Source of the DNA: a phage
Direction: 5' to 3' (one strand)
Length of the DNA stretch: 64,000 nt
Sequence record: PZ229304.1
Of the stretch, positions 4,871 through 10,122 are shown in pieces. Every line of letters starts with the position of its first letter. The stretch's first letter is position 1. The notes under the pieces were generated by a model, which saw only the letters and a list, made by a program, of their open reading frames with translations, was not told where the DNA came from and searched no databases. The position numbers were made by a program, and so were the translations under genes.

Positions 4871-5260
4871 ATGCGCAACCTGGTTTCTGTTTCTAACGTT
4901 GAAAAATTCCAATCTTTACAGGGTATCGTTAACAACGTAGCGCCTTTTTTAGTCAATGGCTTGATTGCAAAGATGAAGAATAAACATCATGCCGCATGGT
5001 CTGCTTACTGCTTTGACAATGATGAAAAAGCGGCTGAAATGATGTTAAATATGCTGTTAGACAGTGTAGAATCATCTTTACCGGAAAACATCGCAGAAGA
5101 GATCACCTATCGTTATAATATGGCGATCACTTACCAGGAGGTTGCGCAATTTAATATGATGGACGATGACGAACAACAGGATCAGGAAATATTCTGGGAG
5201 TATGCGGATCGTCAATCGGCTTTTGATGAAAAGTTAGCGATGTATTATAACGAATATTAA
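4871..5260 (+). CDS. hypothetical protein
   Basis: ORF track, start moved to ATG 4871 after AAAAAGGTAAA. Confidence 0.5.
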   Translation: MRNLVSVSNVEKFQSLQGIVNNVAPFLVNGLIAKMKNKHHAAWSAYCFDNDEKAAEMMLNMLLDSVESSLPENIAEEITYRYNMAITYQEVAQFNMMDDDEQQDQEIFWEYADRQSAFDEKLAMYYNEY

Positions 5261-5276
5261 TACACGGTAAAAGAAA

Positions 5277-5300
5277 GGGGCGCACTAAGCGCCCTTTTTT
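5277..5300 (+). terminator. rho-independent terminator GGGGCGC-actaa-GCGCCC plus T6
   Basis: GC hairpin plus T-run. Confidence 0.65.
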
Positions 5301-5722
5301 GTATTCTTTTTTCACAATGGAAGCGACACGTAAAGAATAGGCGTAAAGGTGGCGTAAAACCATCTAAAACCGACTGTAACCGCTTAAACAAGGTAGGAAT
5401 GATTAATCACCTTACCAGGATGAAAAAGCTGTTATAAAGCTATATAGGGCGTTTAAAGCACATAGGAAATAATTTGCTTTTTATCTTGCCTTTTATTCTG
5501 CTTTTGATTATTATTATGGAACGGGCGGCACCTGGGAACAGGGGAAGATAATCACCGGACGACCCCGCTATATATTGATAGCTAACATCTATCAAACAAC
5601 AAAACATCAAAGGAATAAACTATCAAATCTTTACAATCTCATCTATTGACCGGTAAATCATAGCAGTTTAATATTGTTTTTAGAGGGTAGAACATACCCA
5701 AAACGAAAACAGGAAAAAGAAA

Positions 5723-5959
5723 ATGAAAGAAGTCATGATCCTCAAAAAATCACCTATTTTACGTGGTGGCTTTATCGCTTACTCTGATGATCTGTTAATT
5801 GCAACGGTTGCAAAAATACTAAAATCAGAAGAGGATAGTAAAAACGGCGTTTATCGTATCTGTTTCACCCGTGGGAAATTGCAAGGCAAGATCGCCTATG
5901 CTTTTGATTTACAAGATGTAAATGATAAAATCTGCGCTGTTATTGATTATGCAAAATAA
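5723..5959 (+). CDS. hypothetical protein
   Basis: ORF track; RBS AGGAAAAAGAAA. Confidence 0.45.
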   Translation: MKEVMILKKSPILRGGFIAYSDDLLIATVAKILKSEEDSKNGVYRICFTRGKLQGKIAYAFDLQDVNDKICAVIDYAK

Positions 5960-6046
5960 TTAACTTTCTTATTGACACCGGATCACGCTTACATTATTAT
6001 TTATCACGTAGGGCAAATCATTTTAAACGGTAAACGAGGAATCACC

Positions 6047-6430
6047 ATGAGCAATATCATCAACCTGGCGGCTACTGTAAACGGTAAAGATTTTAACGGC
6101 GCTGTAGATCGTGATCCTATGTGGTGCTTATCCGTGTTTAAAGGCGATCTGGTTGAAGTTAGAACAACCGAAGGTTATAGCGACGATTATAAATGCGAGA
6201 TCCATTTACACAACTGGTACACGGGTAAAACTTATGCGCTGAATCATGCGTTTATCGGCAAGGTTGAATATAGAGAAATGATCGACGAAGAAACGGGGCA
6301 AGATTTTAGCGATTATGTTTATATCCGTTCCGAGACATTAGCAGAACGTTTGATCGAGAAAATGAAAGCAAAAAATAAAATTAATTTAGCTCATTGGATT
6401 GATATAACAAACGATCCAGCTTATAAGTAA
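6047..6430 (+). CDS. hypothetical protein
   Basis: ORF track, start moved to ATG 6047 after GAGGAATCACC; promoter TTGACA 5972-5977 upstream. Confidence 0.5.
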   Translation: MSNIINLAATVNGKDFNGAVDRDPMWCLSVFKGDLVEVRTTEGYSDDYKCEIHLHNWYTGKTYALNHAFIGKVEYREMIDEETGQDFSDYVYIRSETLAERLIEKMKAKNKINLAHWIDITNDPAYK

Positions 6431-6446
6431 ATGACACTTCACACCA

Positions 6447-6472
6447 GGGCGCACAAAGCGCCCTTTCTTTTT
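6447..6472 (+). terminator. rho-independent terminator GGGCGC-acaaa-GCGCCC plus T-run
   Basis: GC hairpin plus TTTCTTTTT. Confidence 0.65.
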
Positions 6473-6677
6473 ACCTAAATAAAGATGATAGCTTTTACCT
6501 ATCAAAAACGTTCACCGAAAAAAGTGAATAGATCGCGGTATCGAGCTAATCAAGGAGCAGATGAACAACCATACCATGAAGATCATAAGGCGCTTACAGC
6601 GTGTTTTAGACCGCTTATTTTTAATTTCTTCATGCAACTATTTGGCAAAAACAGCCTTTTTCTTGTCTTTCCTCTTA

Positions 6678-6690
6678 AATGATAATCATT
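6678..6690. promoter_or_regulatory. Fur-box-like palindrome AATGATAATCATT
   Basis: Exact match to the 13-bp core of GATAATGATAATCATTATC. Confidence 0.3.
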
Positions 6691-6733
6691 CTTATTTATA
6701 GCTGATTATTTATGCAATAAACTGCATAATGCA

Positions 6734-6748
6734 ATAATGATAATCATT
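6734..6748. promoter_or_regulatory. Fur-box-like palindrome ATAATGATAATCATT
   Basis: 15 of 16 contiguous positions match the Fur-box consensus. Confidence 0.3.
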
Positions 6749-7613
6749 CTTAACTTATGACCATCTAACCTATAAAATAATAAGTTATCTAACTAAATTA
6801 AAACTAATTATCTTACTTTTATTTATAACTTACTGTTACTATCTCATTGATAACCTTATATTAAACAACAATAACTAATATAAATCATTACTAAGCTAAA
6901 TATAATCTATCTAACCTTTAAAACTATAACTATAATCTATTGAATTATTGCACAAAGTAACTATTAAATCGTTAGTAACATTACTAAATAATTAATATCC
7001 TATCTATTTATGATCTAATCTTTACATTCCTATCTATTACCTAAATAATCATTTCATATAGTAATCATTTCATACAATAACTATAACAAGAAATATAATT
7101 CGCAAGCGTATCATTAGCAGCCTATGCCGGACACATAGGCGGCTAATAATAACGCAACTACACACCCCACATAATAACTATCACCGATAGTTATTATTTG
7201 TGCTTATGTAGCTTGCAACAACTGCAAGCGCAACAATATACATGGTATATTGTATCCCTTACATTGTTGCGGTGCGTTATTATTAGCTAATGTTTAGAAC
7301 ATTGGCTATAATATAAGCTAAATCATAAGCTATGCAATAATAAACATGGTGAATAATGACATTGATGATCATAATGCGCCACCTTCCAGGGGGCGCTATG
7401 TGAACACAAAGAAATCTTTCTTGTCAAGAAAATATTACTACTATTGCGCAAAATTATTTATATCTGAATAGATGATTTTTTATGCTATTGCCCCCTTGAT
7501 TATTACTATTTGTTGCCCTAACTATTGTCATTTGTTGAGCCTACTTTCTTAAAAGCGCAATAAATCAGAATTATCTTGATTTTTAGTCGGTTTTATAGTA
7601 CAGAAAGTATGCA

Positions 7614-7629
7614 AATGATAATCATTATC
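7614..7629. promoter_or_regulatory. Fur-box-like site AATGATAATCATTATC
   Basis: 16 contiguous positions identical to Fur-box consensus positions 4-19. Confidence 0.35.
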
Positions 7630-7795
7630 AGCTATCTTCCACGGGTGGCACTATTTCACGCCAGATCATTTCATTTGGCAAGGTGTATATAGATGTTTAG
7701 AAATGCCAAGCCATTGATTTACTTAGAATTTATCTGTTTTGTTGTGAGTAGTGCCTTTCTTGCTCAGAAAATAATCAAAAGTCTTATAAGTCATT

Positions 7796-7830
7796 GAATG
7801 ATAATGCAAATGATAATTATTCTCATTGAT
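7796..7830. repeat. degenerate tandem of GATAAT-type hexamers (tgaATGATAATgcaAATGATAATTATTCTCATTga)
   Basis: Repeated ATGATAAT units. Confidence 0.3.
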
Positions 7831-8272
7831 ATTTGAGGGGGACGGTCGGCAGAAATCGGGGGGCGCTGAAAATCGCGTTAAGCACCTCTCGCAAGCGAGC
7901 AGTATTTTGCGGCAAGTTATTGATATTATTGACTTTACGCTTAAGAAAAGGGGGCGTGTCGAAATAAATCGGGTATACCGGAAAATTTTTGTGGCATAGA
8001 TATTTATTTGTCTATATTATGTACAAAGGGGTGTGTTAAAAATAATAGGTATATATAGAATAATTGATAGGGAAATCCTATACTAAATCCTTCATTAATG
8101 ATGTTCCTATGTTGCTGTTCTTGTAATAGATGAAAAGACGCTATATGATGTGTGGCATGAAACGTAAACTTATAAGATGCAAATAATGCTTGCATTGAAT
8201 AGAAATGTCTATACACTGTGTTTCATAAGATATGCAATATCGCGCATAACAAACTACTAATGAGAGGTGTAA

Positions 8273-8731
8273 ATGAAAACTGTATCTTTGTATCTTGCTA
8301 ACACGGAGCGTGTACATAATCTTGTAAAAGAATGCGGTGTGAGTGTTCAATTTAACATAGGAAAGCCTTCCGTGGTGACAGGCAGTGAGATGTGTGTTAT
8401 TGATTTCCTCAATGAATATTTTCGTGGAAAACCTATTGCTCGTCACTTCATTCGAGAAATGCGAGATGTACAACAGGATTATGAATTCTACCCAGAAATT
8501 TGTGAACGCTATGAAACTATTCTTAGTTCTGTAGAAGATCCAGATACCAGTGAAACAGGTGTTTCCCACTTACTGTGGATGTTGAATGAAATTCAGGATG
8601 GGTGTAATGGTATGTCTGAAACCAAACGCCATCGTTGGCTAGGCTATATTCAGGGTGTTATGGTTATGAAAAACCTTATTACAGTGAGTGATGAACGTAA
8701 CGCTACACGCCCCGTCTTTAATGGAGCATAA
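8273..8731 (+). CDS. hypothetical protein
   Basis: ORF track; RBS GAGAGGTG. Confidence 0.5.
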   Translation: MKTVSLYLANTERVHNLVKECGVSVQFNIGKPSVVTGSEMCVIDFLNEYFRGKPIARHFIREMRDVQQDYEFYPEICERYETILSSVEDPDTSETGVSHLLWMLNEIQDGCNGMSETKRHRWLGYIQGVMVMKNLITVSDERNATRPVFNGA

Positions 8732-8732
8732 C

Positions 8733-8948
8733 ATGAAAAGCATTCAGGTGTGTATTGAAAATAATTGTGGTTATCTTGGGTTGACACATGTTGCTTTCCC
8801 TCTTATGTTAGATGCTGATATCGCTTACAGCGGAGTTGCTTATGTGTCATTCAAGACAATGAGCCAAGTACCTGGCTGGAAGTGGGAAGTAGTTGATGTT
8901 GTTGAAGGAGAAGATTATGTTTTCCTTCCACACGAATATACTGTTTAA
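8733..8948 (+). CDS. hypothetical protein
   Basis: ORF track, start moved to ATG 8733 after GGAGCA. Confidence 0.4.
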   Translation: MKSIQVCIENNCGYLGLTHVAFPLMLDADIAYSGVAYVSFKTMSQVPGWKWEVVDVVEGEDYVFLPHEYTV

Positions 8949-8963
8949 AGAGAGGAAAAGAAG

Positions 8964-9146
8964 ATGGATAAACAAACTACTGTGTACTTAGTAACAAAGA
9001 ATACCCTAGACTGGAACCAATGCAGCACTGTCCCTTACAAGATCTGTGCAACATTAGAACTAGCACAACGCGCAGAAGCAGAAGTGGATGCCATGCAAAT
9101 GCAACACAGCTATGGTGAGATCATTCCTCTTACTCTTGAACAATAA
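8964..9146 (+). CDS. hypothetical protein
   Basis: ORF track; RBS GAGAGGAAAAGAAG. Confidence 0.45.
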   Translation: MDKQTTVYLVTKNTLDWNQCSTVPYKICATLELAQRAEAEVDAMQMQHSYGEIIPLTLEQ

Positions 9147-9157
9147 GGATTTGTGTA

Positions 9158-9610
9158 ATGTTTGAAATTGGTAAAGTGTATCGTTTTAAAAACCCATCTT
9201 ATATCCGTAAGTTTGCTAACATGTCTGAGTGCAATAGCAGGATTGCTTCTTTTTTAGGTGATTCCTATTTTCGTGTATTAGATGTGGATGATTGGTATGG
9301 TGTCACTGCTTTGCAATCCTTAGCAGGAGAACAAGAAATTATCGCTCAAAATGAAGGAGACTTTCTTCAGTGTTACACGTTGCTTGCAAAAAGTGAGTTT
9401 GAGTATTTTGTAGAAGTAGTAGAGGAAGCACCAAAAAGTAAACACGAAGAGAAATACCTGCTTGTAGTGGATGGAGTTCCGATCATGGAAACCATCTCCC
9501 GTGAGGAAGTTGAAAAAGAGGCGAAACGTTACAAGCTGGATCGTACACAGGGTGTAGTTGAAATCTATTCTCTTGTTGGTGTTGCAGATATTAGTGTGAA
9601 CATCGTATAA
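9158..9610 (+). CDS. hypothetical protein
   Basis: ORF track; RBS AAGGA. Confidence 0.5.
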   Translation: MFEIGKVYRFKNPSYIRKFANMSECNSRIASFLGDSYFRVLDVDDWYGVTALQSLAGEQEIIAQNEGDFLQCYTLLAKSEFEYFVEVVEEAPKSKHEEKYLLVVDGVPIMETISREEVEKEAKRYKLDRTQGVVEIYSLVGVADISVNIV

Positions 9611-9613
9611 TAT

Positions 9614-9826
9614 ATGTGTAATGACAGATACATTCTTCGTGTATCTGATAAGTCTCCTATGTTTGACTGGCGGGGCTGGTGGCTACTAGCTCCGATGCAA
9701 GGTCTGACAGACGTGGAAAAGGAGGCTTATGTGTATACAAAAGAAGAGATAGAAGATAGTCTTTATTTGACAGATAACATTAAGAATGGTATCTTTGAGT
9801 GTAAATTGAAAGGAGAGGAAGAATGA
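9614..9826 (+). CDS. hypothetical protein
   Basis: ORF track. Confidence 0.4.
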   Translation: MCNDRYILRVSDKSPMFDWRGWWLLAPMQGLTDVEKEAYVYTKEEIEDSLYLTDNIKNGIFECKLKGEEE

Positions 9827-10122
9827 CTGTTACAGAAAAACTGCGTTGTATTGCAAAGCAAAGTGGAGAAGGTTTATGGTTTCCTATTGATGAAGTTATT
9901 CAGGACTGTTATGACCAGGCTAAGACTGGCAAATACTCCAAAGCATTTAAACCATCTGTTTTCGGTTTGGATGACTATCCGACAAATGAACAAGCAAGGA
10001 AACGCCAAGTTGATTTGATTGATCTTGCTATGGAAGCACTACGAGAGCGTGGGCTTAGTAAGGTGTATGCTTTAAACACCAAAGAGGGTTTTGTAGATTC
10101 AGTGATCGTAGATTGGCATTAA
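9823..10122 (+). CDS. hypothetical protein
   Basis: ORF track; start overlaps upstream stop (ATGA). Confidence 0.5.
   Translation: MTVTEKLRCIAKQSGEGLWFPIDEVIQDCYDQAKTGKYSKAFKPSVFGLDDYPTNEQARKRQVDLIDLAMEALRERGLSKVYALNTKEGFVDSVIVDWH

Follow-up and report, generated by a model that had tools for sequence, protein, structure and literature searches.

We found that the window, the whole stretch of 64,000 nucleotides analysed here (PZ229304.1), carries a cluster of near-consensus Fur boxes in a gene-free region that forms and adjoins the ends of a virulent phage genome. Judging from their sequence, these are very probably genuine, selectively maintained binding sites for the Fur-Fe2+ of the host, in an unexpected but conserved place; for our explanation of them as a whole, we see about an even chance. 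Similar sites form a second cluster elsewhere in the genome and arrays in unrelated uncultured phages.

The phage and its direct terminal repeat

BLAST of the 1.9-kb gene-free island identified the phage as a phi92-like Justusliebigvirus (Stephanstirmvirinae), one of the virulent E. coli myoviruses of ~146 kb. The island, with a GC content of 26-37%, matched 100 phage records, the best of them Justusliebigvirus genomes at 95-96% identity. A further 76 records matched at 60-80% and belong to the sister genus Phapecoctavirus and to relatives on Klebsiella, Citrobacter and others. Four records (MG065639, MG065645, MG065656 and MG065689) are labelled 'Campylobacter phage' with the host C. jejuni, yet are 95.8% identical to the island; mislabelling or contamination is the probable reason.

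In the phi92 record, both ends of the virion DNA are annotated as a direct terminal repeat (DTR) of 343 bp, whose first and last bases correspond to window positions 7538 and 7880. The DTR is single in the window, where the assembly collapses both copies. The coordinates are:

7538-7880, plus strand: DTR, 343 bp, placed by the phi92 annotation and an end-to-end match
7494-7537, plus strand: 22-nt tandem repeat ending in ATTTGTTG, found with a repeat finder; it abuts the left cut site (boundary at 7537/7538)

Several independent records begin exactly at the DTR boundary, namely UAB_1 (with an annotated left terminal repeat), VEcB, PHB05, W22, PD114 and Klebsiella phage phi1_175008. The record ends of Schickermooser (Phapecoctavirus) align to the same two boundaries, GTTG^AGC... 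and ...CGCGTTA^AGC. BME3 has been reported with a 342-bp DTR, and such repeats are reported for the whole subfamily. The trinucleotide AGC directly follows both boundaries (GTTG^AGC and GTTA^AGC). GTTG^AGC is the conserved left boundary, and GTTGAGC is repeated two to three times in the Klebsiella, Citrobacter and VivaForever relatives, at a spacing of 67-69 nt in those of Klebsiella and Citrobacter. The 22-nt tandem together with the GTTGAGC boundary is probably the signal for recognition and cutting by terminase.

Fur-like sites in the gene-free island

We used two reference motifs, the 19-bp consensus GATAATGATAATCATTATC and the 7-1-7 inverted repeat TGATAATnATTATCA, and scored sites throughout by mismatches to the Fur consensus rather than with a Fur weight matrix. 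The initial annotation had listed four Fur-box-like sites, and direct reading of the sequence found all of them where it had placed them. AATGATAATCATTATC at 7614-7629 does equal consensus positions 4-19, as had been claimed. Its palindromic core AATGATAATCATT is present upstream in exact copies at 6678-6690 and 6736-6748, and the degenerate tandem at 7796-7830, which reads GAATGATAATGCAAATGATAATTATTCTCATTGA, holds three overlapping 19-mer matches. The 19-mer matches in the window comprise one at 17/19, one at 16/19, one at 15/19 and five further ones at 14/19, while four sites in the island score at least 12/14 against the 7-1-7 repeat. Site spacings are 58, 878 and 195 nt. The sites and the units that carry them are as follows:

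6675-6694, no strand assigned: Fur-like box 1; 19-mer 6675-6693 at 14/19, 7-1-7 site TGATAATCATTCTTA 6680-6694 at 12/14
6733-6752, no strand assigned: Fur-like box 2; 19-mer 6733-6751 at 16/19, 7-1-7 site 6738-6752 at 12/14
7352-7392, plus strand: unit A, a degenerate copy of the 37-nt box-bearing unit (repeat family D1, 73% identical to the reference copy)
7609-7645, plus strand: box 3 module, made of ATGCAA, the Fur palindrome, TATCTT and a G-rich stretch (reference copy of D1)
7794-7840, plus strand: box 4 module, made of an invariant TTGAAT, a hexamer array, an invariant GATATTTG and a G-run (family D1)

Box 3 contains TGATAATCATTATCA at 7616-7630, a perfect 7-1-7 palindrome (14/14), and its 19-mer at 7611-7629 reaches 17/19. 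Box 4 is an array of 31 nt (7800-7830) with 19-mer matches at 7800, 7806 and 7812 in an exact 6-nt register (14, 15 and 14/19, the 15/19 match being 7806-7824) and a 7-1-7 site at 7811-7825 that scores 13/14. Unit A is a fifth, weaker unit, with two 14/19 matches 6 nt apart (7352/7358) within 7352-7376. Boxes 3 and 4 lie inside the DTR; the centre of box 3 is 86 nt away from the left genome end, and that of box 4 is 62 nt away from the right one. Boxes 1 and 2 are located ~800 bp upstream of the DTR, just past the terminator that closes the rightmost gene of the genome.

Comparison with shuffled sequence

The exact 13-mer AATGATAATCATT occurs three times in the 64 kb (6678, 6736 and 7614), each time within the island. 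Sites with at most three mismatches to the 19-mer numbered 3, against 0.04 in shuffles of the whole window. The island alone (1802 nt, 31.5% GC) was compared with 2000 dinucleotide-preserving shuffles of itself:

Separate sites at 14/19 or better: 6 observed; shuffle mean 0.33, maximum 3
Sites at 15/19 or better: 3 observed; shuffle mean 0.04
Site at 17/19: 1 observed; found in 1 of the 2000 shuffles
Exact 13-mers: 3 observed; shuffle mean 0.0015

Since shuffles with the island's own composition rarely reach the observed scores, AT-richness does not explain the sites. The earlier view that the copies go beyond chance even in AT-rich DNA is borne out, as shuffles of equal composition did not match equally well. 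The box copies are partly paralogous and are not independent draws: the repeat finder places them within families of 17-37-nt repeats (D1, D2 and D4), and one 37-nt unit is present in three copies, at 7356, 7609 and 7804.

Conservation among relatives

We aligned 13 sequences over the island and, in a focused alignment, the DTRs of 10 lineages. The Fur-like sites stay in place across genera of the subfamily while their flanks diverge or cannot be aligned. Box 1 is present in every lineage aligned. It reads TGATAACCATTATCA (13/14) in phAPEC8, phiWec188, Schickermooser and ukendt, is a 16/19 site in KP13-26, and takes the form of a 7-0-7 variant, TGATAATATTATCA, in Citrobacter phage Tr1. Phapecoctavirus has a weaker or degenerate box 2; that of KP13-26 scores 15/19.

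Both genera of E. coli phages, Justusliebigvirus and Phapecoctavirus, have boxes 3 and 4. Box 4 (TGATAATTATTCTCA) is identical in the two, flanked by invariant blocks of TTGAA and GATATTTG. The DTR of AMO3598 is only 82% identical, and the single change in its box 4 falls on the unconstrained central base. From box 3 to the nearest genome end it is 86 nt in the window and 84 nt in Schickermooser, and from box 4 it is 62 and 66 nt, respectively (differences of 2 and 4 nt). These distances are kept despite a 14-nt difference in DTR length (343 nt in the window versus 329-332 nt in Phapecoctavirus).

The sites are not universal among the relatives. In the Klebsiella relatives (KP13-26 and KP2025), a different palindrome takes the place of box 3. 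The Klebsiella relatives also have a 12/14 site 28 nt further in, and their box 4 is degenerate (11/14). The DTR alignment revealed no box 4 in Citrobacter phage Tr1, despite its conserved DTR boundaries.

Comparison of 21 distinct homologous sites showed almost invariant arms (T-G-A-x-A-A-T and A-T-T-x-T-C-A), a conservation that is partly circular because the sites were picked by similarity to the consensus. Variation is mostly confined to the central position 8 and to positions 4 (T or G) and 12 (C or A), which are related by symmetry. Variation at the centre and at a symmetric pair is as predicted for a dimeric reader.

A second cluster elsewhere in the genome

The complete genome of arall (MN850584), a 95%-identical relative, was scanned for 7-1-7 sites. 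Scores of at least 13/14 were confined to the terminal island and a single further gene-free gap, at 65,912-67,396 of arall, which corresponds to a location ~3 kb upstream of window position 1 and thus outside the window. Three adjacent Fur-like palindromes are located there within 56 nt (at 66,353, 66,377 and 66,394), directly after three iteron-like repeats of ~63 nt and ~10 kb from the sites at the genome end. At permissive thresholds, this cluster gave only chance-level Rfam matches.

We found the second cluster conserved in Phapecoctavirus, in the Klebsiella relatives and in PVP-SE1, a phage of the Vequintavirinae. In PVP-SE1, a single TGAGAATCATTCTCA is located exactly within the 18-nt spacer of TTGAAT-N18-CAGAAT. 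After the cluster comes a ~200-nt non-coding element, whose conservation extends to 240 phage records from different subfamilies, including PVP-SE1, CR3, Proteus phage Mydo and Pectobacterium phage CB7. A strong leftward promoter, TTGACA-N17-TATACT, was observed on the far side of this element.

Arrays in unrelated uncultured phages

A scan of IMG/VR for the exact Fur 16-mer returned at least 120 contigs; the loci discussed here are partial contigs preselected by that 16-mer. Among the contigs listed, two belong to relatives of the window phage, and about a dozen others carry arrays of near-consensus boxes. These unrelated contigs hold 3-14 near-consensus boxes in non-coding DNA, with non-homologous spacers and in some cases in genomes of 53-57% GC, and the main arrays among them have 5-14 boxes at a spacing of 30-90 nt:

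L103, 10762-11325: 14 sites, three of them perfect (19/19)
L131, 623-900 (equal to L086, 4839-5118): 6 sites in DNA of 57% GC
L017, 5711-5945 (similar to L031, 4042-4270): 5 sites at a GC content of 53%; the spacers are unrelated and GC-rich
L030, 2361-2750: 7 sites
L026, 4877-4960: tandem 35-nt units in a 118-kb contig
Further array loci: L098, 4777-4995; L089, 1195-1470; L065, 3057-3165; L107, 12127-12350

In five array contigs, the array is located 0.2-2 kb from the gene for the terminase large subunit, and these genes represent three TerL families (phrog_979, phrog_2 and phrog_38). This suggests that Fur-box arrays next to terminase genes in unrelated phages are a general strategy rather than the peculiarity of one lineage. 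GC-rich motifs of the GGGGCCC type adjoin several of the IMG/VR arrays. Three array regions gave no useful BLAST match among cultured phages, so these phages are without known host or literature.

The candidate reader of the sites

The initial annotation had named the sites Fur boxes. At the level of sequence the name stands: they follow the 19-bp consensus and the 7-1-7 repeat (perfectly in box 3), keep the 6-nt hexamer register, exceed chance, are conserved at orthologous positions across genera, and have counterparts in the second cluster and in the arrays of unrelated phages. As for occupancy, the putative sites probably bind Fur in vivo.

The register is a specific trait of known operators. 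All 11 footprinted E. coli Fur operators contain overlapping matches in exact 6-base steps (PMC2189734), and the same steps are found in the window at 7800/7806/7812 and 7352/7358, as well as in many sites of the relatives. Oligonucleotides of the consensus type bind two or three Fur dimers at 0.8-1 nM (PMC2189734). The oligonucleotide F-F-x-R binds two dimers at 0.95 nM, while the natural fepB site is weaker, at 8.6 nM (PMC2189734, Table 1), and the natural entS site is likewise weaker than the consensus-type oligonucleotides (PMC2189734).

In a tblastn search with E. coli Fur, none of the Stephanstirmvirinae records yielded a homologue, so that only host Fur could be involved.

Possible functions of the sites

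If Fur does bind, we regard an operator as a plausible main function, at a little under an even chance. A Fur sink is a more tentative candidate for the main selected function, a role in architecture or packaging is unlikely, and some other function has a small chance only. The initial annotation had raised the first two of these, as iron or Fur control over a phage transcript and as titration of Fur.

The argument for an operator comes from the layout of the 37-nt units. In their shared register, a -35-like hexamer (ATGCAA; in unit A, ATGACA) comes first, the palindrome then takes up a spacer of 18 nt, and a -10-like hexamer and a G-rich stretch follow. The -10-like hexamer is TATCTT in box 3 and GATATT in box 4, and box 4 also reads TTGAAT-N18-TATTCT. 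In each unit, the palindrome would thus sit between candidate -35 (ATGCAA/TTGAAT) and -10 (TATCTT/TATTCT/GATATT) elements. This is the classical layout of a Fur-repressed promoter, so iron-dependent repression would be the likeliest local effect. In iron-replete cells, Fur dimers would occupy box 3, the box 4 array and boxes 1 and 2, and weak rightward promoters leading out of the DTR toward the first early genes would be repressed in an iron-dependent manner. Since these phages grow in rich, iron-replete media in which Fur is active, any such repression cannot block infection. During genome replication, the ~7 strong sites per genome equivalent may also pull a substantial share of Fur off the host operators.

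The in-register hexamers are weak (3-4/6 matches) and fall below the scan threshold. A scan of the island for sigma-70 promoter-like sites found 12, against 13.2 +/- 3.8 in shuffles, and thus no excess. In E. coli, 83% of Fur-site clusters overlap a sigma-70 promoter (PMC2189734). The only convincing terminator in a scan of the island was that of the upstream gene, at 6446-6464, and a comparison of the island with Rfam at permissive thresholds gave chance-level matches only. No transcriptome for this phage group was found in open-access papers and preprints, and no loci related to the first downstream protein were found in IMG/VR. Two other candidates were considered and set aside: a Fur-regulated small RNA just downstream of box 3 or box 4, where no conserved terminator or structure is present, and a sigma-54 promoter at TGGCAC (7646-7651), which has no -12 element.

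The sites might instead act purely as a sponge that sequesters Fur during genome amplification and has no local regulatory role, a reading we hold to be unlikely. Derepression of host iron uptake and RyhB-type iron sparing would follow and would supply the iron-dependent ribonucleotide reductases of the phage. The phage does encode a class I ribonucleotide reductase (RNR), an anaerobic RNR and a glutaredoxin, and its iron-dependent RNRs make a benefit from a Fur sink plausible. Several separate predicted high-affinity sites are present rather than one operator, with three more elsewhere in arall, and no convincing promoter overlaps them. No single bacterial operator resembles the unrelated arrays in the number and spacing of their boxes. 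A sink effect would follow almost automatically from binding of Fur to the sites. In the FURTA assay, the Fur regulon is derepressed by a single Fur box carried on a multicopy plasmid. An E. coli cell contains roughly 5,000-10,000 Fur monomers, and ~7 sites on 100-200 genomes, at 2-4 monomers per site, amount to the same order. However, a sponge needs neither conserved distances from the ends nor invariant TTGAA and GATATTTG flanks. Its benefit requires that host transcription and translation continue late in a short lytic cycle, and seven sites are modest beside the 14-site array of L103.

The palindrome may also serve as operator for a DNA-binding protein of the phage itself, for example an early regulator of the phi92 gp005 type or the small terminase, and resemble the Fur box by coincidence. 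AT-rich palindromes are common as phage operators, repeated units of 17-37 nt are typical of phage regulatory repeats, and phi92 has a predicted transcription regulator of this type annotated 2 kb downstream. A conserved small ORF also adjoins the arrays in one group of IMG/VR contigs. But the match covers the full Fur consensus and the 6-nt register, not just some palindrome, and the motif recurs in Vequintavirinae and in phages that share no protein with the window phage. Its occurrence in GC-rich genomes argues for a target defined by the host. By blastp of all ORFs of the complete arall genome against those of 18 array-bearing loci (partial contigs), arall shared no protein with the main groups, and no cognate DNA-binding protein common to the motif-bearing genomes was found in this set. 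It is therefore unlikely that one phage protein reads the motif in all of them. What they obviously have in common is host Fur, and we consider a phage-encoded reader improbable.

Two sites at conserved distances from the physical ends raise an architectural or packaging role as a third possibility. Fur bound near both DTR boundaries would aid recognition or cutting of the concatemer junction by terminase, or would organise the injected ends. The two DTR sites, 86 and 62 nt from the ends, are kept within 2-4 nt in another genus, and the unrelated arrays near terminase large-subunit genes occupy the usual place of cos or pac sites. A fixed short distance from the cut site is what a packaging element would have. 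Such an element would also be present in all relatives with the same cut sites, whereas box 3 or box 4 is missing from Klebsiella and Citrobacter relatives whose boundaries are conserved. Boxes 1 and 2 are ~800 bp from the DTR, the second cluster is ~10 kb away, and the terminase gene of the window phage itself is located ~56 kb from the DTR. Packaging that depends on an iron-loaded, non-essential regulator also seems a liability, and we know of no precedent. On balance, this role appears rather improbable. Shielding of the DNA ends from RecBCD was rejected, as sites 60-90 bp inside the end would not stop RecBCD.

That the sites are functionless chance matches multiplied by local duplication, as the low GC content of the island and the embedding of the copies in repeat families might suggest, is very improbable, since shuffles of matching composition hardly ever score as high, the sites are retained at orthologous positions even where the flanks are ~74% identical or unalignable, and the sole change in box 4 of AMO3598 falls on the unconstrained centre.

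Other elements of the island

Two further conserved features were found between the Fur-like boxes, neither of them Fur-like:

6710-6729, no strand assigned: palindrome TTATGCA-N6-TGCATAA between boxes 1 and 2 (repeats D9 and I23), conserved in all genera aligned
7100-7290, no strand assigned: hairpin and three-hairpin junction between boxes 1-2 and the DTR (I12, I13 and I15)

The palindrome may be a site for a different protein, and related TATGCAATA motifs recur at 7330-7339 and 8231-8249. In the element at 7100-7290, the hairpin CCTATGCCGGACACATAGG precedes the junction, which a perfect stem of 15 bp (GCTAATAATAACGCA / TGCGTTATTATTAGC) closes. Across 7 lineages, 11 of its 48 pairs show compensatory double changes, with almost no G-U pairs and few breaks, and it has no Rfam match. 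The compensatory changes and the near-absence of G-U pairs mean that it could be a DNA cruciform (an origin or pac element) or an RNA from either strand. The stretch at 6750-7100 (22-26% GC) is rich in short direct repeats that resemble iterons (such as ATCTAACC..TAAAA and TAA.TATAATCTAT) and varies in length between genera; it looks like an origin or DNA-unwinding region.

The central part of the DTR differs in orientation between relatives. In AMO3598 and pEC-M2929-1AR.1, the central ~85 bp of the DTR (~7659-7742) are inverted relative to the window and phi92. The inverted segment lies between the imperfect inverted repeats GGCACTATTTCAC and GTGAGTAGTGCC (flanks 7640-7652 and 7743-7754) and holds a TTGGCA-N23-TGCCAA palindrome. 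This inversion could be a single evolutionary event or an invertible switch. The region from the DTR to the first conserved early gene (7880-8272) is an insertion hotspot, where VivaForever (L012) and many relatives have ~0.4-0.9 kb of extra small ORFs; these insertions explain the two-piece BLAST matches.

Significance and comparison with known systems

Among open-access papers and preprints, none was found to describe Fur boxes in a virulent phage, within a terminal repeat or in arrays. We tentatively propose that clusters and arrays of Fur boxes at genome ends or packaging regions could be a convergent, previously undescribed class of phage cis-elements, serving as a Fur sponge or in structural recruitment at the terminus. 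As part of the same tentative proposal, this class would span the phi92/phAPEC8-like and rV5-like myoviruses and at least three unrelated groups of uncultured phages. Enterobacteria rely on Fur as their central iron sensor. Iron is normally limiting in the gut and during infection, the settings for which therapeutic use of these phages is under development. If widespread, broad-host-range virulent coliphages do bind Fur at their ends, phage development or the iron physiology of the infected host would depend on iron status.

Known systems share parts of this arrangement. The cosB site of lambda contains the IHF site I1, where a host DNA-binding protein assists terminase. The window phage resembles it in having predicted sites for a host protein at a fixed short distance from the packaging cut. 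It differs in the protein concerned and in that half of its sites are far from the cuts, and no bend or terminase-binding repeats were identified in it. FURTA is similar in placing predicted high-affinity boxes, here many of them, on an amplifying replicon, with derepression of the regulon as the expected outcome. In contrast, FURTA is a laboratory plasmid artefact, and a natural, selected phage version was not found in open-access papers and preprints.

The stx1 promoter of Stx1 phages is controlled by a Fur box. The sitABCD operon on lambdoid coliphages is also Fur-box-controlled cargo (PMC6969025). These temperate phages likewise put a host Fur box on a phage genome and tie expression to the host regulon. 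There, the box serves a single moron gene that benefits the lysogen, whereas the window phage is strictly lytic and has no cargo gene, multiple sites and a location at the genome end.

The closest likeness is to the E. coli Fur operators themselves (iucA, fhuF, fepA-fes, cir and tonB), which have the same 19-bp consensus, 7-1-7 core and 6-bp register (PMC2189734). Their boxes are also located between or over -35-like and -10-like hexamers (PMC2189734), a promoter overlap that is putative in the phage. Unlike these operators, the phage sites are carried by a virulent phage, do not lie upstream of an iron-related gene, and are distributed over two gene-free islands, partly within the DTR.
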